64,000 bases of DNA from Escherichia phage Paul. The notes under the pieces were generated by a model. It made no database searches. It was not told where the DNA came from and saw only the letters and a program-made list of their open reading frames with translations. Positions 43,591 through 63,542 of the stretch are shown piece after piece (the first letter of the stretch is position 1; each line of letters starts with the position of its first letter). The stretch lies in sequence record NC_070992.1; one strand, given 5' to 3'. A program made the position numbers and the translations under genes.

Positions 43591-44694
43591 TTACAGCGCT
43601 TGCTCTAACTGATGTTCCAGATGATCTGGAATGTACCCTGTGATGTTATTATCACTGTGACCTGACTCACGAAGCAAGTCAAAAATAGCACGGATACGTT
43701 GTTCTGGTGCAGATCGTACTTGAGACAAGTCAGTTGTACGAAGCATAACCAGAATCTCTTGATATAAGTTGTTAGCGTTCCCTCGTACATATCCAAGGAA
43801 TCCATAGAAGTCTGAGATAAGACGTAAGTCAACAAGAACCTCTCCGTTGGAGTTGGTTCGACGTAAACGAATACGACCAGACTGTTCTACTTCATGAGAA
43901 CGACAATACAAAACATCACGGGCCATACAATACCCTGAATGCAAATCCGATTCGTCCAGATTGTAATCCAGAGGAAGGTAAGGAAGCATTGGGGCAAATC
44001 GTACAGTATTTAAATGCTCAATAAACTGATCATTGCTCATCTCTGCGTTATCTAAAGCCAGTTTCTTCAACATCAAGAAGCGGTTAACCAGATTGAGAAG
44101 TTGACCACGTTTCCACTTAGGCTCACTGATACGGAACTCAATTGAACCATATTGTGCAAGTGGCAGAAGGTTCAGGGATGTATACTTATCCCATGAACGA
44201 ACCAGACGATTGAAGAACTCTTCATCGTCGTAGTTAAATGCGTCAGAGGCATTCATTACCTGTGCTTGTACCACTGCAAAAGCAGGGCAGAAGTTGCTAC
44301 GGTAACGATGATAGCCTGAACACTTGAACAACATCTTTTCATAGAAGGTCCAAGCGAGAATGGTTTTCTTGAGGATATTACTATCAGCATCCCTCATATC
44401 CATATGAACGTGAGTAGAGCAACGCCAAGTCCCCTCGGCGTGCGATTCAGCTACTGCTTCACTCAGGTTGTTGATAGCGTCTAACAACTCCTGTCCGTTG
44501 TAAGGCCGTGAACATACCATTTCACAACCATTACGCAGGGAACCATCCTCTGTACAATCCCACATATCTGCTTCGATATGGTCGGAGCCTTCGAGTTCTA
44601 GTTCGATACCGACACCGCACTGAAGTGCAATTGAACTATGCGCCTCAGTTAAACGACCTTCTCGATATCCAAAAGTTTGCGCTACAGTTGTCAT
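43591..44694 (-). CDS. amidoligase (GCS2-like carboxylate-amine ligase, phage amidoligase family)
   Basis: GVGIELELEG...DGSLRNGCEMVS...STHVHMD matches the amidoligase signature. Confidence 0.65.
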   Translation of the reverse strand: MTTVAQTFGYREGRLTEAHSSIALQCGVGIELELEGSDHIEADMWDCTEDGSLRNGCEMVCSRPYNGQELLDAINNLSEAVAESHAEGTWRCSTHVHMDMRDADSNILKKTILAWTFYEKMLFKCSGYHRYRSNFCPAFAVVQAQVMNASDAFNYDDEEFFNRLVRSWDKYTSLNLLPLAQYGSIEFRISEPKWKRGQLLNLVNRFLMLKKLALDNAEMSNDQFIEHLNTVRFAPMLPYLPLDYNLDESDLHSGYCMARDVLYCRSHEVEQSGRIRLRRTNSNGEVLVDLRLISDFYGFLGYVRGNANNLYQEILVMLRTTDLSQVRSAPEQRIRAIFDLLRESGHSDNNITGYIPDHLEHQLEQAL

Positions 44695-49056: not shown

Positions 49057-49272
49057 CTAAAAATCACTTGATTTTACAAAACCATCACTAAGGATTTCGT
49101 CAATTTCTTTGTTAGTCAAGTCTTTCCTGAACCAACAACAAGGTACATCCACCCATTGACCAGAGTTGTTTTCTACAGAGCATCTATTGCCTGTCTTACT
49201 CTTGCACTTATAGGTTTTACCTTTGTCTAGACGGTAGTGTATTCTGTAAACGATCGACACAAGTGTTATCAT
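49057..49272 (-). CDS. hypothetical protein
   Basis: 71-aa ORF, Cys-containing. Confidence 0.3.
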   Translation of the reverse strand: MITLVSIVYRIHYRLDKGKTYKCKSKTGNRCSVENNSGQWVDVPCCWFRKDLTNKEIDEILSDGFVKSSDF

Positions 49273-49505
49273 TACTCGCCTTTCTTAGCACGATCTTTGG
49301 CAGTTTTGCCAGTGCGGATGCGATGGGAAACGTTAACCAGAGTGCCACCATCAACTACGGTAACGCTCTTGTTTTTAGCCAGATCGAACACAGTTTTCTC
49401 CGTGCCACCCAAGCGAATTTGCTTAGGTTCACTGAAGGTTTGGGTTGATTTGGATTGGAACTGAAAAGGTTGACGGATTGCATCAATTGCACTTACTTTA
49501 GACAT
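49272..49505 (-). CDS. hypothetical protein
   Basis: 77-aa ORF. Confidence 0.3.
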   Translation of the reverse strand: MSKVSAIDAIRQPFQFQSKSTQTFSEPKQIRLGGTEKTVFDLAKNKSVTVVDGGTLVNVSHRIRTGKTAKDRAKKGE

Positions 49506-49738: not shown

Positions 49739-49984
49739 TTACATCGGAGTTAAGATGATCTCTGCTTTGGCAAACTTCTCACCAACTTCGAGAGTATCAG
49801 CAACAGGACGAGGTACACCAGTACCCAAACAAACAGCCCTTCGATACCCACCAGATACAGTCATCATCAAATAAATGACCTGATTATCATCTTCTTTTAA
49901 AGTGAAGATATCAGCGATCGCTAGATCTTTGACAAAGAGTTTCTTTTCTTCTTTGTGACGGACCTTGATATGTATTGTGCTCAT
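49739..49984 (-). CDS. small-protein family B member (divergent)
   Basis: 81 aa; shares size and the late V.PV / hydrophobic beta-like pattern with the family. Confidence 0.35.
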   Translation of the reverse strand: MSTIHIKVRHKEEKKLFVKDLAIADIFTLKEDDNQVIYLMMTVSGGYRRAVCLGTGVPRPVADTLEVGEKFAKAEIILTPM

Positions 49985-49986
49985 AC

Positions 49987-50232
49987 CTACTCCTGAACCA
50001 CAGACATACGAATCATCTCTACCTGATCATCAAGACTTTTAACAGATAGTACACCTGTGAAAAGGTTTACCACAGGAACCCAACCACTGGCTATACGGAT
50101 GTTACCAGAAGCATTTTCAACCCTCATATAATACTGAGGAGAGGCACTTCCGATCTGAACCACGAAAGGGTTTCCGGGAATGATTGTTTCCAATCGTACC
50201 GTATTATCCTTTTTCTTTGGGATGATTTTCAT
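49987..50232 (-). CDS. small-protein family B member
   Basis: MKIIPKKKDNTVRLETIIPGNPF...VPVVNL; tandem paralog. Confidence 0.4.
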   Translation of the reverse strand: MKIIPKKKDNTVRLETIIPGNPFVVQIGSASPQYYMRVENASGNIRIASGWVPVVNLFTGVLSVKSLDDQVEMIRMSVVQE

Positions 50233-50471
50233 TAGACACTACTCACTAAAAGTTCGGCTGATACAGGGACAACTTGGCACGTAGAATCTGGTGCTGTTAC
50301 AAGTCCGTCATGTAGACGAAGGGCTAGGGTACGTCCACTATTTACGGATACATTGGGTGTGCCGTGAACAAAACCTTTAACATAAAGTGTATCACTATCT
50401 GGATGCGTAAACACTGCCCCAGATTCTAAGGACTCGAGTCGGACACGATCAACCCTCTTTGTAATCTTCAT
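50232..50471 (-). CDS. small-protein family B member
   Basis: MKITKRVDRVRLESLESGAVF...LRLHDG...VVPV; tandem paralog. Confidence 0.4.
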   Translation of the reverse strand: MKITKRVDRVRLESLESGAVFTHPDSDTLYVKGFVHGTPNVSVNSGRTLALRLHDGLVTAPDSTCQVVPVSAELLVSSV

Positions 50472-50722
50472 TTCGAACCCTTAATAACGTTAGCTTCAAC
50501 TTTGACAGGGATGACAGAGATGCCTTCAACCGGACCGCTCAGACTACCATCTTCCAGTCTTACGCACACAACTCTATCTCGTGCAACTTCCACCCAATTG
50601 GTAGACGCCGCAGTACAGACCATATGGATTGGGCCGTTCTCTTCTTTACGGAAGGTGTCACCATTCTTCAGAGTGTGGAGTTTCGCAGTTTTGATAGTTT
50701 TATTTAACTCATTAACTTTCAT
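50468..50722 (-). CDS. small-protein family B member
   Basis: MKVNELNKTIKTAKLHTLKNGDTF...VRLEDG...VIPV; tandem paralog. Confidence 0.4.
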   Translation of the reverse strand: MKVNELNKTIKTAKLHTLKNGDTFRKEENGPIHMVCTAASTNWVEVARDRVVCVRLEDGSLSGPVEGISVIPVKVEANVIKGSK

Positions 50723-50730
50723 ATTGATTC

Positions 50731-51054
50731 CTATTTAAGTTTGAGGCTAATATTAAGGTGCATACATGCCCTGTTCTGTACAGCAGCATAACTTCTACCG
50801 AGCATGTCAGCCATTCTCTGGATAGACATGAACCCAGCATTACGGATAAGGAACTGGTCTTCTTCTTTAGACCACTTAATTCGAAGTACAGCTCTTGATA
50901 TACCAAACTTGGTACAAGCTGTATTAACTGCATTCTCCGTTACATTCATAATCTGAGCAACTTCTTGAACCGAGTACTCTTTGATTAGTCTCCGAAGATT
51001 TTCAATCTGCATAGGAGTCCATATAGTTCTTCGCGCTTTCATTTTACCACCCAT
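50731..51054 (-). CDS. tandem Myb/SANT-like helix-turn-helix DNA-binding protein
   Basis: Two repeats of W(T/S)..E...L ... (I/M)A..(M/L)GRS..AV.NR typical of Myb-like domains. Confidence 0.4.
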   Translation of the reverse strand: MGGKMKARRTIWTPMQIENLRRLIKEYSVQEVAQIMNVTENAVNTACTKFGISRAVLRIKWSKEEDQFLIRNAGFMSIQRMADMLGRSYAAVQNRACMHLNISLKLK

Positions 51055-51265
51055 GTCGACTTTTGACTAATACGCCATCAATTATCAGATAGTGGGAATG
51101 GTTAATCATATCCGAAGACAAATCTCCGTGAGAACTATTCCATTTAAGGAAGTTCATGTTTTCCCAATCGACGTAGTGCTTCTTGGCCTCTTCTTCTACC
51201 TGACTAAGAGTTACCCTTCTGAAAGGATAAGGACTGTGCTTGATAAGTATTTCACATTTTGTCAT
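51044..51265 (-). CDS. hypothetical protein
   Basis: 73-aa ORF. Confidence 0.3.
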   Translation of the reverse strand: MTKCEILIKHSPYPFRRVTLSQVEEEAKKHYVDWENMNFLKWNSSHGDLSSDMINHSHYLIIDGVLVKSRHGW

Positions 51266-51317
51266 ACACCCTCCAATTAAACATTTATATAAGACTTGCT
51301 TAGATAAAGATTCAATA

Positions 51318-51345
51318 AAATAGGGGGAGGGGACGAATCCTCCCT
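51318..51345 (-). terminator. possible terminator hairpin (GGGAGG-loop-CCTCCC)
   Basis: 6-bp GC stem in the 420-bp intergenic region; trailing T-tract is weak. Confidence 0.3.
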
Positions 51346-51683
51346 TATCCTATTAGTTAATATTGCATGTAAGATCTAACAATCGGTTGCCTTTGTAGGA
51401 ATAGGCGTAAAGCCAATCCAGCACTAAACTCCCGCCCCCTTAGTGGGCTGGGTTATTAAAGGGTAACGCCCTTATGGGCTAGTTACGTGAATGTTAGTTT
51501 GATAGGAGATCTGAAGTCCTATCTCAAAGGACTCTCGTAAGAATCCTTCACGATATTACTTATTCAACCCTCGTCGGCTATCTCTCCAAGCCAACCAAGT
51601 GTAGGTTTTCAGTTCTTCAAAGTCTTCTGGAGAGAATAGATACTCTTTGAAGGTATCACCAAACCACTTTAAAAATTCTTCAG

Positions 51684-51929
51684 TCATGAGTCCTCATACT
51701 TTTTGTTAGGGAGTATAAAATCCCACAGGGCAGCCCATGCTACGAGTGCTATAAATAGTACAGCAATAATAGGCCACAAGAAAACCATAGCTGCTATCTT
51801 TCCGAGGTCTGGTTCACCATCCCAACCTCTGAAACACTGATTACCTTTAACATCTATGACCTTAATTAGAACACCTGATACCACTGACCCTATCAGGTAG
51901 GCTATTAACACACTAACAAGACTGGTCAC
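51684..51929 (-). CDS. two-TM membrane protein
   Basis: 81 aa with hydrophobic helices at about residues 3-23 and 45-68. Confidence 0.4.
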   Translation of the reverse strand: MTSLVSVLIAYLIGSVVSGVLIKVIDVKGNQCFRGWDGEPDLGKIAAMVFLWPIIAVLFIALVAWAALWDFILPNKKYEDS

Positions 51930-52086
51930 AAGGTTGATCTCCGCATGTTTTACAGATCACTGGTGAGTAACTACAGGCAGGGTATACTGACACGCCATTC
52001 CACGTCTCACACCCACAATCAGGATATGTACCGTTAGATTCCATATCATCACCGTCATCCACTTCACCGCCACCAAAACAACTCAT
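51913..52086 (-). CDS. small cysteine-rich protein (57 aa, below the track cutoff)
   Basis: ORF MSCFGGGEVDDGDDMESNGTYPDCGCETWNG...CKTCGDQPCDQSC found by eye; strong SD AAGGAG 5 nt upstream. Confidence 0.35.
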   Translation of the reverse strand: MSCFGGGEVDDGDDMESNGTYPDCGCETWNGVSVYPACSYSPVICKTCGDQPCDQSC

Positions 52087-52095
52087 ACAGGCTCC

Positions 52096-52317
52096 TTAGT
52101 AAACTAAACCTGTAGCCTTTGCATCAGGCTGAGGTACCACTTTTGTGCTAGGGCGATAGCCATCCACTGAGCCGTTCCAAAGATTGACACAGGTGATATA
52201 TCCATCGTTTATGATGTCTGTTTTAATCCAGAAGTGTTTATCATGACCAAAAATACTTCCGTTTGGCAGCGTGGACAGCTCAACGGTTTTAAGTGACTGC
52301 TTAGAGTCTAGTTTCAT
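52096..52317 (-). CDS. small-protein family B member
   Basis: MKLDSKQSLKTVELSTLPNGSIF...VNLWNG...VVPQ. Confidence 0.4.
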   Translation of the reverse strand: MKLDSKQSLKTVELSTLPNGSIFGHDKHFWIKTDIINDGYITCVNLWNGSVDGYRPSTKVVPQPDAKATGLVY

Positions 52318-52324
52318 AATAACC

Positions 52325-52573
52325 TCAATTATCGTAGCATGTATTCCAATACATGTAGTTAACGTATGTTCTCGGTTTGATTCCGTACATGATGAAGTGA
52401 GTCTTCTTAATCCTTTCCTTCAGTGTGTAGTAAAGGCCATCACTGAAGTTACCAATCTTTGCTTGGAAACGTAAAGAGCGAGCATCCATTCGAAGCATAG
52501 AGATTAGCTGTACTCTACTACCCCCAGCCATCTCTTCAAGAAGCTTCTTTGTATTCCAATAATGAGCTGTCAT
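52325..52573 (-). CDS. hypothetical protein
   Basis: 82-aa ORF. Confidence 0.3.
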   Translation of the reverse strand: MTAHYWNTKKLLEEMAGGSRVQLISMLRMDARSLRFQAKIGNFSDGLYYTLKERIKKTHFIMYGIKPRTYVNYMYWNTCYDN

Positions 52574-52574
52574 A

Positions 52575-52856
52575 TTACCACTCCTTACCAGTTGTTGTTA
52601 CAGAGCCACCACACCACTGTGCATCTGACAAGGTTTTAGTCTCCTCGTCCACTGCTGCGCCATTCAGGCATGAGATACCATTGTAACGCATATCAACTTC
52701 ACCAGAAGGAACCTTCTCACCTTTATGCCAGCGAGAAACACAAACACCTTCCACTGCTACTGCACACCACCCATTAGGACGGCTCTGTACGCAGCCTGTA
52801 AGGGCCACGCAGACAAGGAAGATACAGATTAAGGATATTACACCACCCCAACTCAT
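52575..52856 (-). CDS. cysteine-rich secreted lipoprotein
   Basis: Signal peptide with canonical lipobox LTGC (MSWGGVISLICIFLVCVALTGC); mature part has 6 further Cys. Confidence 0.5.
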   Translation of the reverse strand: MSWGGVISLICIFLVCVALTGCVQSRPNGWCAVAVEGVCVSRWHKGEKVPSGEVDMRYNGISCLNGAAVDEETKTLSDAQWCGGSVTTTGKEW

Positions 52857-52887
52857 AACTGCCTCCTAATTAATTTGGCGTCCCCTA

Positions 52888-53400
52888 CTAGGGTAGGTGA
52901 TTCCAAGTGTCACCCCTTATTGCACTACCTAGTGTCGCCCTGTTAACTCCAAACCTTCGAGACATTGCAGCAATACCAAACTCTCTGTCCCTAGGCACAT
53001 AGTTTTCTTTACAGAAATTTATTAACTCTTCTGTAAGTTTTGCATTTGGGCACTCCTCACCTTTTCTTGGCAGGATTAAACCTTCTCTAAATGCATGTTG
53101 TACGTTTCCACTAACTGTCACCCATTCTAAGTTATCCTCAAAATTATTAAACTTATCACCATCGATATGATTTACAACCGGATAGTTGTTTGGATTCTCC
53201 TTGAAAGCTTTAGCAACTAGTTGGTGAATCTTCAAACACTTGTAAACACCTTGCCTACCTCCTATCTTTGTGACATGAGACAGATATCCATTTATAGGAT
53301 TGAGTCTAAGTATTCGATTAGTCCTCTTGCTGAAAAGGCGACCTCTATTACTAATCGAAAACAACTCTTCGTAACCTACTACATCTTTCCACTCTTCCAT
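52888..53400 (-). CDS. HNH homing endonuclease (NUMOD4/HNH_3-like)
   Basis: W.DVVGYEELF.ISN.GR...NGY...HQLVAKAF...VNHIDGDKFNN..NLEWV pattern; next to the tRNA gene. Confidence 0.65.
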   Translation of the reverse strand: MEEWKDVVGYEELFSISNRGRLFSKRTNRILRLNPINGYLSHVTKIGGRQGVYKCLKIHQLVAKAFKENPNNYPVVNHIDGDKFNNFEDNLEWVTVSGNVQHAFREGLILPRKGEECPNAKLTEELINFCKENYVPRDREFGIAAMSRRFGVNRATLGSAIRGDTWNHLP

Positions 53401-53430
53401 TGAGTGATCTCCTTATTTGAGAGTACTTTA

Positions 53431-53506
53431 AGAGGACGGGGAGATTCGAACTCACCAACCTAGAATTTAGAAGATTCTTGCTCTCATCCAATTGAGCTAC
53501 GCCCTC
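53431..53506 (-). tRNA. tRNA-Arg (anticodon UCU), no encoded CCA
   Basis: Folded by hand: acceptor GAGGGCG/CGTCCTC (one G-U), D-stem GCTC/GAGC, anticodon stem AGAAT/ATTCT, loop CTTCTAA, T-loop TTCGAAT; one extra nucleotide in the variable region; 3' end followed by TTAAAG. Confidence 0.7.
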
Positions 53507-53526
53507 TTAAAGTACTCTCTGTTTAA

Positions 53527-54006
53527 CTATTCAAAAACACATTTTACACCTACAACCCCATCTCCGCAGTCGTCACAGATGTGTCGAACTAAAACCTTAT
53601 CTCTTGGTAAGCAAGATCTTAACTCTTCCAACTGATCTCTTTTAATGTTAATACTTTTAACATAAGGGTGGGTGTCGTACATGATGTTCATGATATTTTT
53701 AGGCCAGGTGTAATCTGTTGGTTCCCCACAGGTACAACACCATCTCCAATTTATTACATCAATATCTTTTAACCTCTCCTCCTCTTCTCTGACTAAGGCC
53801 TCCTGTTCCTCCAACAACCTCAGCCTTTCTTTTAGTATTTTTTGATTTCTTTCTTCCTTCCTGTTTTCATGTGCCTCTTTTTGATCTTTTATGAAAAGCC
53901 AAACTCCGACACATAAAGCAGTCCAGATTATTGCGTTGACTATAGCTATGGTTTCCTCCAGATTTAGATCATATCTCGCTTGGTGATATGACCACATGTT
54001 TTGCAC
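53527..54006 (-). CDS. membrane-anchored coiled-coil protein with C-terminal zinc ribbon
   Basis: TM segment AIIWTALCVGVWLF, Glu/Arg/Lys-rich helix, then CCTCG ... CDDCGDG cysteine pairs. Confidence 0.35.
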   Translation of the reverse strand: MQNMWSYHQARYDLNLEETIAIVNAIIWTALCVGVWLFIKDQKEAHENRKEERNQKILKERLRLLEEQEALVREEEERLKDIDVINWRWCCTCGEPTDYTWPKNIMNIMYDTHPYVKSINIKRDQLEELRSCLPRDKVLVRHICDDCGDGVVGVKCVFE

Positions 54007-54135
54007 TGCATGATGTATCGTACACCCTTATGTTTCGTACCACCATAATCATCAGTGATCTTTAGTGTATACTTCTCAAGAATTACCCAATCATGCAGAT
54101 GGAATAGACGTTTAAACCACTTGAACATACTAACC

Positions 54136-54387
54136 TCAAGCACAAGCAGGGAGTGTGATGATTTTATACTTACCTTCAAACTCTCCAAACAAACCTAAGA
54201 ATGTAGGACTGTAAGTACCAGTGCAAACAAACTCGTCAAACAATTCGTTATAGCTAGGCTTAATCTTCCAAGCCCATACATAACCCATCTTGTCAATTGC
54301 AATGTAACGAGTGTTCAGAGGAACAGTCATCATCACACCGTCAACTTCGATCACTTTAGTGATTGGTGCAGCTTGGAAGTTTTTCAT
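54136..54387 (-). CDS. hypothetical protein
   Basis: 83-aa ORF. Confidence 0.3.
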   Translation of the reverse strand: MKNFQAAPITKVIEVDGVMMTVPLNTRYIAIDKMGYVWAWKIKPSYNELFDEFVCTGTYSPTFLGLFGEFEGKYKIITLPACA

Positions 54388-54561
54388 ACTTTACCTTTGA
54401 TAAAAATATCATTACCACAAACACAGCATGAACGAACAACAGTAGCGCCACGCTGAACGATACGAACCTCTTCCTTAACCAGATTAACACGAGCACCACA
54501 GCAAGGAGAGTTAACATAAGAGTAACCAGCTTGTGTATTCTTGATTGTTTGCTTAGACATT

Positions 54562-54969
54562 TTATTCGAGATCTCTTAGTTGTTCAGCCAATTGTTCGCA
54601 CTCATTGATGCAGAACTCTTCTGTTCTTGGAACCCCATTAGGGTTGAACCGTGTCTTATCACCTGCATGGGCACAATCAAATCCGATTGCATCTAAACCA
54701 CCCATCTCTTCAAGGGCATCTTGCCATGTGACACCACCATGAACGTTCACATAACAAACAACCTTTTCCTCTCCGTTATATCCGGTGAAGTTTTTATGTT
54801 TCAAACTATCTGGTAACTCTACATACCCACATAAGTGGGAATTGTTCATGTGCATAATCACAGCACGAAGACCTGATTTAGTTTCCCAACTTTTAACTAT
54901 GCGTCTCATATAAGCACCTCTTGTTAGTTTAAGTAAGAGTTGTCCCTTAATTAAAACAACAAAGGCCAC
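54562..54969 (-). CDS. hypothetical protein
   Basis: 135-aa ORF; probable start at the internal MRRIVKSWE. Confidence 0.35.
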   Translation of the reverse strand: MAFVVLIKGQLLLKLTRGAYMRRIVKSWETKSGLRAVIMHMNNSHLCGYVELPDSLKHKNFTGYNGEEKVVCYVNVHGGVTWQDALEEMGGLDAIGFDCAHAGDKTRFNPNGVPRTEEFCINECEQLAEQLRDLE

Positions 54970-55491
54970 CCATTTGGGCAGCCTTTTATTTGTTAACTGT
55001 TATATGTCCAACTACCTTGCTTGTTACGGATGGCTGACATTGCATGAACCCAGAAGCCTTCCAGTTTCAGAGCACCGTTAGCTACTGCATCCATACGTTC
55101 AGGGCGGTTCATACGTTTGGTTGATACTTTCATACCTATCTCTCTTTGTTAGTGGAGGCATTATTGCCAGTTGACATAAGGGATAGCCCTAGTCAGTAGA
55201 CTAATCCTGACCGCGTACTCATTGCCGACCTTCTCTGCCTAAGAGTTCAGGTTCTAGAGCTATCTCTTATTCCAACTGGTGAAGACTCCCTACCCCTAGG
55301 AAGTCTCCTGAATCCCAAAACCAATATGTACCCCTACATATCAGAAAGTCTTTCGAAATTAACAGGTTTTAGTCTAACACCGGATGTTCGAGCAAGCTCT
55401 CCCTAGCGGTGTGGCATATGCCTGAATTAATAAGTTAATGAGGAACACCCTCACATAGCCCTCTGATAAACACAAGGGCTATAAGTCGGTG

Positions 55492-55740
55492 TTACTTATT
55501 GGTAATTACTGCATCGTGGATAACTGAAACAGGTAAGTTTGAATCTAGTTTCATTACTTGATTAGTGTTTAAACTAAGCACTACACAACCATTCCGAAGA
55601 TCAGTCTCTGACACATGTGGTGTATATAACTGAACGATCATGTAATAATCAATACATGTTGCCTTAACTTGGAACACATCACCAAGTTTCAAATCACCCA
55701 CACACAATTCTTTAGCTTTCATCTCAAGATCAATCTTCAT
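55492..55740 (-). CDS. small-protein family B member
   Basis: MKIDLEMKAKELCVGDLKLGDVF...VVLSLN...PVSV. Confidence 0.4.
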   Translation of the reverse strand: MKIDLEMKAKELCVGDLKLGDVFQVKATCIDYYMIVQLYTPHVSETDLRNGCVVLSLNTNQVMKLDSNLPVSVIHDAVITNK

Positions 55741-55966
55741 CTTTAGCCTCTATATTGGTTATGTGGAGATCGCTACGAACTTGGCAGACTTCGTCCCGTT
55801 TAAAAGGCATGAGCTTTCCAGTTACTACATCAACACAGTTGATATAATTATCTGCGTACAGGGTGTCGGTTCTGATGTAAAGAGAGTCTTTACGCTCAAA
55901 CAGAACTCCCGGCTTCATGTTATTTAAGCGAAGCATGGTACAATCAGATTTAATATTAACTTTCAC
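55730..55966 (-). CDS. small-protein family B member
   Basis: MKVNIKSDCTMLRLNNMKPGVLF... Confidence 0.4.
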   Translation of the reverse strand: MKVNIKSDCTMLRLNNMKPGVLFERKDSLYIRTDTLYADNYINCVDVVTGKLMPFKRDEVCQVRSDLHITNIEAKDED

Positions 55967-55968
55967 TG

Positions 55969-56250
55969 TTAATCCACCTTATTAGTAAGACGAACATTAT
56001 CTACTATCTGTACAACAGTATCTTTTCTTAACATTGTTACTTTATCTGAAGTAAGATCTACTACTACCCTTTCATCAGACTTCCAACTAGCCGAATAAAC
56101 GGTTGAGGAATCTAGCTTTACTGTAAGATATAATTTATTTTTAGGTGGCACAGTTTCAAAAACACTTCCAACCTTCAGATCTTTCAGCTGCTTAACTACA
56201 GGGGCTGTATTAATGTCATGCTTCATTGTTAATCTCCTGCTGCTTAGCAA
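55969..56250 (-). CDS. small-protein family B member
   Basis: ...VKQLKDLKVGSVFETV...VVDLTSD...VVQIV. Confidence 0.4.
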   Translation of the reverse strand: MLSSRRLTMKHDINTAPVVKQLKDLKVGSVFETVPPKNKLYLTVKLDSSTVYSASWKSDERVVVDLTSDKVTMLRKDTVVQIVDNVRLTNKVD

Positions 56251-56512
56251 TAGCTACTCTCAAGTCTTCATTAGCACGAGCAAGGCGTAATACTTCGTGG
56301 TTGAGATTCTGAAGACGCTTATTTCTGTCTTCAACTTGCAGAATAAGATCGTTAAGAGTTGCTTTAACTTTCTCATTGTACATCTCATCCACTCGGACTA
56401 GGGACTTATACATTCTCTCCCAGCTTGCTGCTTTGTTTCTAAGGATAATAAATCCTAGAACGCTGATAGTTAAACAAAGTACAAGAAGGAATTTATATAC
56501 TTCTAAAGTCAT
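56216..56512 (-). CDS. membrane-anchored coiled-coil protein
   Basis: N-terminal TM (FLLVLCLTISVLGFIIL) then a heptad-rich helix. Confidence 0.35.
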   Translation of the reverse strand: MTLEVYKFLLVLCLTISVLGFIILRNKAASWERMYKSLVRVDEMYNEKVKATLNDLILQVEDRNKRLQNLNHEVLRLARANEDLRVAIAKQQEINNEA

Positions 56513-57261: not shown

Positions 57262-57487
57262 ATGCGGAAGCTTCAAATGGGGAGAGGGCACGACGCGACA
57301 GAAAGAGCGTCATAGTACTAAAAAGAGAGGCTATTGGAGAGGTTACTTATTGCCTTCCTTAGTGCCTTGTTTTCTTGTTTAACCAATTCGTTTTCTTCTT
57401 GCAAGGATGCTACCAGATGGACCAGAACATCAACTACTGCATCACCTTGCCGCATCTCTCTGACTTTATTTAGAATCTCTGAATAAA

Positions 57488-57931
57488 TCATTTTACCCTC
57501 GCCTCTTTGATGGGGTCGATGTATTTCTCAACGCCCCACTTGTGTTTACTATCTGCGTAGAAAACATCAGGTGCACATTGGCTTATTTTAGGGAAGGCTT
57601 GCGGGTCTTTCGTGCTCCCCTTAAACTTCTGTTTACCTCGAGTGCGACCATTACAGAAGATTTCTAACTTCTTCTCCTCTTCTGTTTTAGCTCCCCCGCT
57701 CTTTAACAAAGAACGTTTATGATCGGCTAACAATAACGCATCAGCACGGTGAACACGATGGCCTACACGTTTTGCCACACTAGAAGGAATATGGGATTCA
57801 GCTTCAGCCTTTGCAGCACGACGTTTTAAACTACGCTTACTGACGTGGTTGGTTGCCTTTGGTTTTTCTTTCTCCAGTTCAGAGATAGCAAAACAACGCC
57901 CGCCCTTCATGCTGATTTTAGATTTAGCCAC
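57488..57931 (-). CDS. basic hypothetical protein
   Basis: 147-aa Lys/Arg-rich ORF. Confidence 0.35.
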   Translation of the reverse strand: MAKSKISMKGGRCFAISELEKEKPKATNHVSKRSLKRRAAKAEAESHIPSSVAKRVGHRVHRADALLLADHKRSLLKSGGAKTEEEKKLEIFCNGRTRGKQKFKGSTKDPQAFPKISQCAPDVFYADSKHKWGVEKYIDPIKEARVK

Positions 57932-59657: not shown

Positions 59658-60480
59658 GATATTCACCTTTCAATTGTAAGGGCGCTATTGCCCCGCTCTC
59701 TATGAGCTTGCTTAAGTCACTATTAACTTAACTCTAACCACTCACTATTAAGTAGTTATAGGTAAGTGGGGCGGTCTTATCAGGAGTTAACCTTGCCGCC
59801 CCCTTATCCGTGATGTTTCATCTGGTATCTTTAATTAGTCGCTATAAACGAAGCCGACCTGATAGCGATGATCAATCATCACAATAAGGCTATGCGTCCG
59901 ATTCTATTTAATTACATTGCTGTAACCGTCGGCAATATCGTCTACTTTGTTTTCGCTCCCGCTTATCCTTTTATATCAGCTCTCTATCGCTAGTCATCGC
60001 CCACTACGGGATACTATTGCGAAAGAGTCACTAACCGCCTAGTATTCCGGCGTTTTATATCTTTCAGCAGGTTTACTACATAACCCGACTATGTACTTTC
60101 ATCTTATGATGAATCTCAAGCCGTTCACATCGTAAACGTTCGCATTAAACCTTATTGTTAAATAGCAATTTGCCACTTTTCAACCACTCCCCGCCGCTCT
60201 CAATTGAGCGTTATTTCTTCGGGCTTGCCTACCCTGATTAACTTCTTTCACTGTAGCGCCTTGTTAGCGATGACCGCCGCTACCCTTAACCGTGGGCGAT
60301 TAGCTTAAGTCTTTGCGTGCACTCAATGAATCCGTTTATCAGTGGTGACGTTTCCAGTAAGGGATTGTAAGGCTGTTTTCTCTGATAGTTTAGAGAGTCT
60401 TACACCGTTTTATCTGGTATGTTATCCGATGGTTATTATCATCTAACATATTCAACCGATATAGGAGAATGTTTAAATTA

Positions 60481-60491
60481 TTAAAGAGCGG
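60481..60491 (+). repeat. TTAAAGAGCGG motif, copy 1 of 4
   Basis: Same 10-11-mer recurs at 60715, 61027 and 61137 in an ORF-poor region. Confidence 0.5.
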
Positions 60492-60571
60492 TAAATCTAT
60501 CAGTGTGCTTTCTCACACTATGCAACCGTTAGCCGTTGTTACGCTTTCCACTTAAGCGATGATTTGCTTAG

Positions 60572-60609
60572 TGAGTGCTCATTATGAATCAGGCTGTTTT
60601 CGCTGTCAA
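60572..60609 (+). repeat. direct repeat copy A (TGAGTGCTCATTATGAATCAGGCTGTTTTCG...TGTCAA)
   Basis: 31-nt identical core plus flank shared with 61060..61097. Confidence 0.6.
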
Positions 60610-60714
60610 CCGCTTTTTAATCTTTTTTCGTCGTTCCCGCTATTGGGAGGATATATCAATCAGCTTTATTTGATTGAGGATTAAGCGGTGAGGCTTAACT
60701 TATGATTCATATTG

Positions 60715-60725
60715 TTAAAGAGCGG
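60715..60725 (+). repeat. TTAAAGAGCGG motif, copy 2
   Basis: Exact match. Confidence 0.5.
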
Positions 60726-61026
60726 TGTAGCATTTACAGCTTAACACATCGTGTTAGCTTGTCAATCTCTTTTTATCATCTTCTTTTATTCTTTTCCCTT
60801 ATCTCGCGTGAATCTATGCGAAAGGGCAAGATGATAAGTCTGATTTGTCTTTTAGGAATCTAGTGCGCTTTCAAGCATTAATCTTTTGAAAGTATCGAAC
60901 AAATAAGGCTTATTGATATTGCTTATTGCCCGCCTGCGTCACGTATGAATCAGGAATCAATTCTACCGATTAACTGAGCGCCTTATAGTAATGACGTTGC
61001 CGCCACCTGTAAGACAAATCATGTTT

Positions 61027-61037
61027 TTAAAGAGCGG
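61027..61037 (+). repeat. TTAAAGAGCGG motif, copy 3
   Basis: Exact match. Confidence 0.5.
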
Positions 61038-61059
61038 GATGTTTTAAGTCATCGCTGAC

Positions 61060-61097
61060 TGAGTGCTCATTATGAATCAGGCTGTTTTCGGTGTCAA
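61060..61097 (+). repeat. direct repeat copy B
   Basis: Near-identical to 60572..60609 (single mismatch C/G in the flank). Confidence 0.6.
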
Positions 61098-61136
61098 TAC
61101 TCTTTTTGAGAATATTTTCACTTTCTAGCCTGATTT

Positions 61137-61146
61137 TTAAAGAGCG
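61137..61146 (+). repeat. TTAAAGAGCG motif, copy 4
   Basis: 10-nt match. Confidence 0.45.
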
Positions 61147-61511
61147 TAGCACTTTCATTGTGCGTCTTACTGTCGGTATTCCTACCGCTCCCCGTTGAAG
61201 CCTTTTACCGTGATGCTAATCACCTATCGAGGAGTTTTACTTCTTGTTGTTGCTTACTGCTTACTACGGGATTCATATTAATATACAGGAAAATCCTGTC
61301 AATACCCTTTTTTCAAATTATTTTTCATCTCACTGTTTTATAAAGGAATTTATTTTATTGTCGGTAGGACACCGGAAGAAATCAGGAGGTAAAGGAATGG
61401 GTGCGCGTGATACATCATAGAAAACGGCTTGTAAAGCCATAATAAGCGTCCTAAAACACATCACAACGAGCTAAAAGGGAGTAAGGCATACAATCACCTC
61501 ATAAAAGAGAA

Positions 61512-61530
61512 AAGCCTCACTAGGAGGCTT
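61512..61530 (-). terminator. putative intrinsic terminator (minus strand)
   Basis: AAGCCTC-CTAGT-GAGGCTT hairpin followed by TTCTCTTTTAT. Confidence 0.45.
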
Positions 61531-61605
61531 ACAGGAAGGATTAGAGAATCAGATAAATTATGACCATAGGCATGACTACGGCACAATACAGGAGAAAGAT
61601 TAAGC

Positions 61606-63514: not shown

Positions 63515-63542
63515 ACTATATAATAAAGGAAAAGGCTGTCAA
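63515..63542 (-). promoter_or_regulatory. sigma-70-like early promoter candidate (TTGACA-N16-TATAGT)
   Basis: Minus-strand -35 TTGACA (63542-63537), 16-nt spacer, -10 TATAGT (63520-63515), about 45 nt upstream of the gene starting at 63470. Confidence 0.5.

Follow-up and report, generated by a model that had tools for sequence, protein, structure and literature searches.

Eight small early-region genes of Escherichia phage Paul belong to one protein superfamily with a predicted SH3-like small-barrel fold

Escherichia phage Paul is a phiEco32-like podophage (Kuravirus, Gordonclarkvirinae). The 64,000-nucleotide stretch of its DNA analyzed here (NC_070992.1; hereafter, the window) carries eight small genes on the minus strand between positions 49739 and 56226, and profile comparisons indicate that all eight belong to one protein superfamily. 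The superfamily is broad, and it is the amplification to 5–10 copies per genome that, judging from its distribution, is the special feature of phiEco32-like phages. The proteins are predicted to adopt a five-stranded SH3/Tudor/KOW-like small beta-barrel, and it is possible that they act as binders of host or defence-system proteins. The members are labeled A–H following the window coordinates, with lengths in amino acids (aa):

A: 49739..49984, minus strand, 81 aa; phiEco32 gp95 type; phrog_12612; the most divergent paralog
B: 49987..50232, minus strand, 81 aa; phiEco32 gp96 type; phrog_7431
C: 50232..50471, minus strand, 79 aa; phiEco32 gp97 type; phrog_7832; a divergent allele
D: 50468..50722, minus strand, 84 aa; phrog_7832
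E: 52096..52317, minus strand, 73 aa; the isolated copy; phiEco32 gp104 type; phrog_6570
F: 55492..55740, minus strand, 82 aa; phiEco32 gp114 type; phrog_9955
G: 55730..55966, minus strand, 78 aa; GTG start; phiEco32 gp115 type; phrog_16423
H: 55969..56226, minus strand, 85 aa from the ATG at 56226

An earlier, sequence-only reading of the window had described these open reading frames (ORFs) as four in tandem, one isolated and three more in tandem about 5 kb away. This layout is correct, and all eight ORFs are present on the minus strand. H is also a real ORF, but the TTG start at 56250 that had been given for it (93 aa) is unlikely. Because the ATG at 56226 (MKHD...) is preceded by an AGGAG ribosome-binding site, and because the database protein P0012 (85 aa) is 100% identical in its alignment with the 85-aa form, this ATG is the most likely start of H, and the 93-aa form is probably over-extended. 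G has the ribosome-binding site AAGGTGGA, and that of A is good. The start and stop codons of D/C, C/B and G/F overlap, which suggests translational coupling of these pairs.

The eight had been proposed to be paralogs, and they prove to be so: B–H are supported by hidden Markov models (HMMs) built with each member left out in turn, and A by a broad profile from which it was withheld. All-against-all BLASTP yields a connected but weak network at 24–28% identity, with expectation values (E) of 1e-7 for C-D, 5e-7 for E-G, 6e-6 for G-H, 3e-5 for D-E and 6e-5 for both C-G and F-H, while B is linked marginally and A not at all. In the leave-one-out searches, controlled with 1000 composition-preserving shuffles per protein, B–H score 17.7–35.2 bits against shuffle maxima of 5.6–17.1 (for example, B 23.5, C 17.7, F 26.2, G 23.8 and H 18.6 bits). 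A is borderline in this test, at 7.9 bits against a shuffle maximum of 7.1, with none of its 1000 shuffles scoring as high, and it is the best non-member among the 377 window ORFs when these are searched with the seven-member HMM. The broad HMM comprises 129 remote relatives together with B–H, leaving out A and its orthologs. It picks exactly the eight among the 377 ORFs (B 62.5, C 58.5, F 56.1 and G 59.6 bits); A scores 16.4 bits (E 1.5e-4), and the next ORF has an E of 0.2. The A ortholog of phiEco32, gp95, reaches 33.6 bits with the same HMM, and phrog_12612, the PHROG of A, is matched by F at 2e-3 and by remote members at 1e-7 to 3e-4. A is placed in the family on the strength of these three results. 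In short, A–H all give a full-length match to a profile built without the protein tested, which is how membership of the superfamily is defined. Neither the seven-member nor the broad HMM found a ninth member among the 377 ORFs of the 64-kb window. A candidate copy at 43668-43793, suggested by a weak tblastn match, was rejected as it is out of frame inside a 367-aa gene.

The superfamily motif consists of MK-, L-x2-L-x2-G-x2-F, Y-x-K, V-x-L-x2-G and V-x-P-V, corresponding in E numbering to a core of M1 and K2, L14, L17, G20, F23, Y30, V44-N-L46, G49, V60 and P62. Across 137 sequences, M1, G20, F23, L46, G49 and V60 are near-invariant, all of them core or turn residues. The sequence-only reading had ascribed one motif to all eight proteins; the conserved core is real in B–H, where it is recognizable with few substitutions each, but A starts with MS instead of MK and lacks the near-invariant glycine of G-x2-F, keeping L, F, Y, L-x2-G and V.

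Outside the window, an exhaustive HMMER search of 1.84 billion representative proteins recovered 498 clusters (50% identity) at E up to 1e-3, almost all of them single-domain proteins of 70–90 aa. Tandem two-domain fusions also exist (P0135, P0143, P0152 and P0182, with two matched stretches each). The long matches P0124, P0126 and P0216 were discarded, being cadherin, NHL and other repeat proteins whose scores are summed repeat artefacts. A Foldseek search with the model of E against BFVD returned uncharacterised proteins of many phage groups, including N4 gp21 (E 2e-5), which scores 56 bits with the family HMM. Phage 7-11, which is distantly related and shares the elongated-head C3 morphology, carries four members among its early-region genes. 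The claim of a lineage-specific expansion therefore stands in part: given the 498 clusters, N4 gp21 and the phage 7-11 proteins, the superfamily itself is not lineage-specific, but its 5–10-copy amplification is particular to phiEco32-like phages. By cross-matches, the superfamily spans PHROGs 6570, 7431, 7832, 8365, 9955, 12612 and 16423. N4 gp21 and these seven groups resemble the window proteins in length and core motif, and each window protein has one of the seven as its best match and cross-matches several others. They differ in that the 22 kb of N4 examined hold one copy, as against eight in the window, and PHROGs keeps the family as separate, unlinked groups with no described function for any.

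Less sensitive searches show little of this breadth. Among cultured phages, tblastn found members in Gordonclarkvirinae only, and those of N4 and phage 7-11 needed HMM or Foldseek searches; word-indexed searches with the family alignments retrieved little beyond the kuravirus orthologs and yielded neither Pfam domains nor informative names. A tblastn search of PLSDB plasmids with the family consensus gave no match. The metagenomic contig members examined are single-copy. Remote single-copy members in two metagenome contigs (L009 and L010) and in L002 lie within runs of small genes, with DUF4313, DUF932, cREC_REC, DUF6927 and a reverse transcriptase among the neighbors in the first two and DUF4313, DUF7659 and DUF6291 in the third; such surroundings resemble the accessory regions of mobile elements, be they uncultured phages or others. 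In a cellular, multi-domain setting the family was met once only, in the chromosomal Tenacibaculum protein P0158, from a metagenome-assembled genome (L011 3583-5019, L012 8001-9437), in which a SprT-like metalloprotease domain is joined to five near-identical tandem copies of the domain with very basic loops (KKGEKKRTRY). It looks like a genuine family match.

AlphaFold models were made for two paralogs, D (shallow alignment) and E (137-sequence alignment). The predicted local distance difference test score (pLDDT) is 78 for D and 85.8 for E, and the E model has a predicted template modelling score (pTM) of 0.71 and five strands. These models predict a small barrel of antiparallel strands that can be overlaid on solved domains of the SH3, Tudor or KOW kind. 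Structural likenesses include the SH3-like domains of DtxR/IdeR, FeoA, domain I of EF-P and eIF5A, the ribosomal L2 C-terminal domain, Tudor, PWWP, the VapX antitoxin, CarD and the C-terminal Tudor-like domain of UvrD. Model confidence in the monomer is low at both ends, for the conserved MKI start and for the strand-like tail at the C-terminus. Scans of the eight proteins against Pfam, NCBIfam and PADLOC gave nothing significant. Seven of the eight match no Pfam family at E up to 1, H has one sub-threshold beta-propeller match (15 bits, cut-off 27), and none reaches the gathering score of the Pfam SH3, KOW, Tudor, PWWP, FeoA or CarD_TRCF families. The 137-sequence profile found only spurious antibody matches among PDB sequences (E 0.25 or worse). 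In PHROGs, the eight fall in seven families, all of "unknown function", with many cross-matches linking all eight. The modeled fold is of a binding type with no sign of a catalytic site; the non-enzymatic reading is supported by the lack of any significant library match and by near-invariant residues that are glycines and hydrophobics (G20, F23, L46, G49 and V60).

The early class of phiEco32 is the right-hand, leftward-transcribed cluster; sigma70 promoters stand at its head, and no other part of the genome varies as much (PMC8948821). Coding sequences (CDS) 69–125 make up the early class of SU10, where one promoter precedes CDS125 and genes 120 and 121 are separated by a spacer with three more (PMC4281155). 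The family orthologs phiEco32 gp95-98, 104, 114 and 115 and SU10 096-113 lie inside these reported early blocks. In the window, the family genes lie downstream of four strong sigma70-like promoter matches at 60.6–63.5 kb, all on the minus strand: one at 63515-63542 (63542; 11/12) and three at 61302, 61097 and 60609 (10–11/12), the latter within some 1.9 kb of mostly non-coding DNA (59667–61605). This layout appears to match the SU10 and phiEco32 early pattern. By synteny, the genes would belong to the sigma70-driven early class of both phages, in agreement with their first description as early proteins.

Comparison with relatives shows how changeable this set of genes is. The 8 kb around them matches 106 phage records, nearly all from Escherichia and Shigella phages of the phiEco32 group, at 91–94% identity over 66–76% of the length. 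None of these records covers at least 80% in one place, so the region is a mosaic of conserved and replaced segments. The phiEco32 counterparts are gp95-98, gp104 and gp114-115, all annotated as hypothetical. Counted in the early-region loci examined only, the members number 8 in the window phage, 9 in phiEco32, 10 in Bas90, 9 in SGF2, 7 in ECBP2 and 5 each in SU7, EK010 and Bas87; clustering at 38% identity or above sorts those of the eight genomes into 16 groups. The paralogs have no nucleotide similarity to one another, which rules out recent duplication and indicates that the duplications are old. All 21 ortholog pairs have ratios of nonsynonymous to synonymous substitution rates (dN/dS) of 0.04–0.33 (A 0.25–0.30, B 0.12–0.17, C 0.19–0.33, F 0.10–0.16 and G 0.06–0.08), and these are therefore real, constrained genes under purifying selection. 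No gene-wide positive selection was seen in the 21 comparisons.

The members differ widely in how well they are kept. A shares only 54% identity with the orthologs from phiEco32, Bas90 and SGF2, next to a flanking gene (49272-49505) that is 99–100% identical to those of the same three phages. B orthologs are 94–96% identical. For C, the counterparts in phiEco32 and Bas90 are 61–63% identical, and tblastn of the SGF2 locus examined gave no match. The slot of D is occupied in phiEco32 by another family member (gp98 type) of 28% identity. F ranges from 59% to 96% among relatives, and H is 93% identical in Bas90 and 68% in SGF2, with no tblastn match in the phiEco32 locus examined. Bas90 keeps orthologs of B, D, E, F, G and H at 91–97% identity. 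Overall, flanking genes are 90–100% identical while A, C, F and H fall to 54–71%. Additional types without a window counterpart occur in phiEco32, Bas90 and SGF2 (gp113, gp109, Bas90_0110 and SGF2 gp088), and Bas93 has no family member between its gp116-like gene and the spacer that in the window follows F. From these comparisons, diversity arises by replacement, with copies gained, lost or swapped between relatives. The genes behave as accessory genes, given their 5–10 copies per genome, the slot swaps, the missing members and the drop in identity relative to the flanks. Within orthologous groups, substitutions fall mostly in the N-terminal linker and loops, and the MKI start, the core motifs and the C-terminal tails of B, C, G and H are fixed. 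The tails differ from paralog to paralog.

What, then, might these proteins do? The reading we prefer, to which we give slightly less than an even chance, is that they are non-enzymatic binders made early, each with its own host or defence-system target. Each copy would be a binding module in which a conserved hydrophobic core carries variable loops, and specificity would lie in the loops and in the C-terminal tail that differs between paralogs. Produced early in infection, the copies would each bind a host or defence-system protein of their own and block or redirect it, and recombination among co-circulating phages would reshuffle the repertoire. Gordonclarkvirinae are reported to be highly resistant to the tested defence systems (PMC11990801). 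Together with the early class, the turnover between close relatives and the binding-type fold, this resistance makes a circumstantial case for takeover or anti-defence, and an anti-defence role specifically has a minor chance at best.

Several observations weigh against this reading. There is no characterised homolog, every relative being annotated as "hypothetical", and the SH3-like fold class is equally common in nucleic-acid binders. The gene-wide dN/dS values are well below 1, indicating purifying and not arms-race selection, and B, E and G are 93–97% conserved among kuraviruses, which fits housekeeping-like roles equally. Other genes could explain the resistance of these phages to restriction. 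As regards curated models, those of PADLOC, which cover defence systems, match none of the eight proteins. In the searched portion of the BASEL S2 Table, a table that includes a sheet of AntiDefenseFinder predictions, Bas90 and SkaterBoy occur once each, which suggests that both are without a predicted AntiDefenseFinder match.

Known proteins of similar kind offer partial parallels. T7 Gp2, Gp0.4 and Ocr are small early host-takeover or anti-defence proteins of virulent coliphages, encoded by single-copy genes and having defined targets. The present family resembles them in small size, in predicted early expression from host-polymerase promoters and in variable presence among relatives; unlike them, it has different folds and no homology, and is multi-copy on one scaffold. 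FeoA, the DtxR C-terminal SH3-like domain and VapX, the antitoxin of VapD, are stand-alone barrels that act via partner-protein binding. The family has no Pfam match to them and only 8–18% identity in structural alignments, and no toxin, iron-transport or DtxR gene occurs among the neighbors examined. The RID of CarD/TRCF and the UvrD C-terminal domain are Tudor-like and interact with RNA polymerase; the family has no Pfam CarD/TRCF match, and the phiEco32 proteins named as acting on RNA polymerase are gp36 and gp79 (PMC8948821).

A stronger version of the binder idea would be one SH3-like scaffold held at 5–10 copies and exchanged between co-circulating phages as a repertoire, each copy neutralising a different host defence or takeover target. 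We regard it as rather improbable. If true, it would go some way to account for the resistance of Gordonclarkvirinae to most of the defence systems tested, and the roughly 500 clusters, N4 gp21 among them, would constitute a widespread anti-defence superfamily that is new. In a variant, some copies might instead partner a structured RNA that adjoins the F-G-H cluster.

This RNA lies in a non-coding spacer of 358 nucleotides (nt) on the minus strand (55134-55491), directly downstream of F. The spacer is 97% identical among the window phage, phiEco32, Bas90 and SGF2, a tighter conservation than that of the neighboring F at the protein level, and it is recognizable in Suseptimavirus and Nieuwekanaalvirus. 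RNAalifold on 11 Gordonclarkvirinae sequences gives 77 pairs in 11 helices, with 99.5% of cells paired and compensatory changes at 14 pairs, seven of them within one 13-pair helix. In controls with the partner slid by 1–3 columns, 38–47% of cells are paired and there are 0–3 compensatory pairs. Since many G-U pairs are conserved, the transcribed strand fits. Rfam has no match to the spacer even at E up to 10. By this covariation, the spacer is a conserved structured RNA absent from Rfam. Two of its hairpin loops share the motif UAGGGGUA, which is found nowhere else in the window. The apex of the 13-pair helix carries a 67-nt insertion (spacer nt 236-302, window ~55190-55256, minus strand), which is missing from NJ01, Bas93 and Suseptimavirus. 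The insertion shares about 80% identity with the antiterminator gene N leader of the P22-like phages BTP1, ST64T and ST104, where the counterpart lies between nutL and the N ribosome-binding site, with boxA and boxB visible in ST64T. By analogy with the lambda N leader, this position would hold an RNase III-processed hairpin, and the 67-nt module may be a transferable RNA processing or regulatory hairpin.

The spacer RNA bears on the best of the rival explanations, in which the paralogs bind phage or host RNA or DNA in the manner of KOW, Sm, Sso7d or PWWP domains, with this RNA immediately downstream of F-G-H as a possible target. The relatives of the fold speak for it, as do the SprT-like fusion P0158 with its five copies and very basic loops, and the presence of a family member or family-sized ORF directly 5' of the spacer RNA in 10 of 11 phage genomes. 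However, the adjacency may be plain synteny, as Bas93 keeps the RNA without an adjoining family member. The proteins also show no charge bias: the isoelectric points (pI) of the eight range from 5.5 to 9.3, and the median of 136 relatives is 5.8, with 54% below 6. Conservation is confined to core and turn positions and includes no basic or aromatic residue at the surface, and there is no Pfam KOW, Sm, PWWP or Tudor match. We give nucleic-acid binding a small chance.

It is also conceivable, though quite improbable, that neighboring, translationally coupled paralogs form hetero-oligomers with one shared function. The two-domain fusions and the start/stop overlaps described above would suit such an arrangement, and the low-confidence N-terminus and C-terminal tail could pair between subunits. 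Yet there may be a single copy, as in the N4 region examined, or as many as 10, as in Bas90, and members are lost or replaced independently, which makes a fixed complex unlikely. Finally, there is next to no chance that the similarity reflects composition or coincidence among short ORFs, or that the ORFs are not genes: pairwise identities of only 24–30%, pairs without a significant BLASTP match and the closeness of A to its shuffle maximum could be read that way, but significance beyond composition is established by the leave-one-out scores of 18–35 bits, the full-length, same-sized relatives recovered from the billion-protein search, the broad profile that finds A and no other window ORF at E <0.2, the dN/dS values, and AlphaFold models that are confident and mutually consistent.

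Several neighboring genes of the window deserve mention. An HNH homing-endonuclease gene (NUMOD4 + HNH_3; 52888-53400, minus strand) adjoins a tRNA-Arg (TCT) at 53430-53507 (minus strand). It has no counterpart in phiEco32, Bas90, SGF2, ECBP2 or Bas87 and is thus probably a recent insertion. A 159-aa ORF (53527-54006, minus strand) has several CxxC pairs, an N-terminal hydrophobic segment and no Pfam match, and a 57-aa ORF lies at 57318-57491 (minus strand); both are without counterpart in the five relatives compared. The 98-aa protein encoded at 56216-56512 (minus strand) is hydrophobic at its N-terminus and coiled-coil-like in the rest. Several relatives carry orthologs named "DNA helicase", a name that is probably an error copied between records, as there is no Pfam match at E up to 0.001.

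The proteins are already in databases as hypothetical; what is new is a well-defined family within a known fold class. In the literature searched, which included two papers on the phiEco32 group, neither the paralogy nor the link to N4 gp21 nor any function is described, and no relevant screens of kuravirus accessory genes were found. Amplified families of accessory early genes are, in our view, ordinary in phages, but this one is unusually large and broad. The phages in question are a common group infecting E. coli and are used in therapy; one uncharacterised superfamily accounts for about 10% of their early-region genes, and no curated library joins these genes to each other or to their N4 and phage 7-11 relatives. 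Seen as one family, eight or more separate "hypothetical proteins" become one testable question, for which nature offers controls: Bas93 has no copy at the F-G-H position, the examined region of N4 has just one, and E. coli K-12 that expresses its O16 O-antigen is a host of Bas90. If the copies are not inhibitors, a clean family definition for annotation remains; if they do inhibit host or defence proteins, the scaffold would represent a new, abundant class of phage counter-measure.

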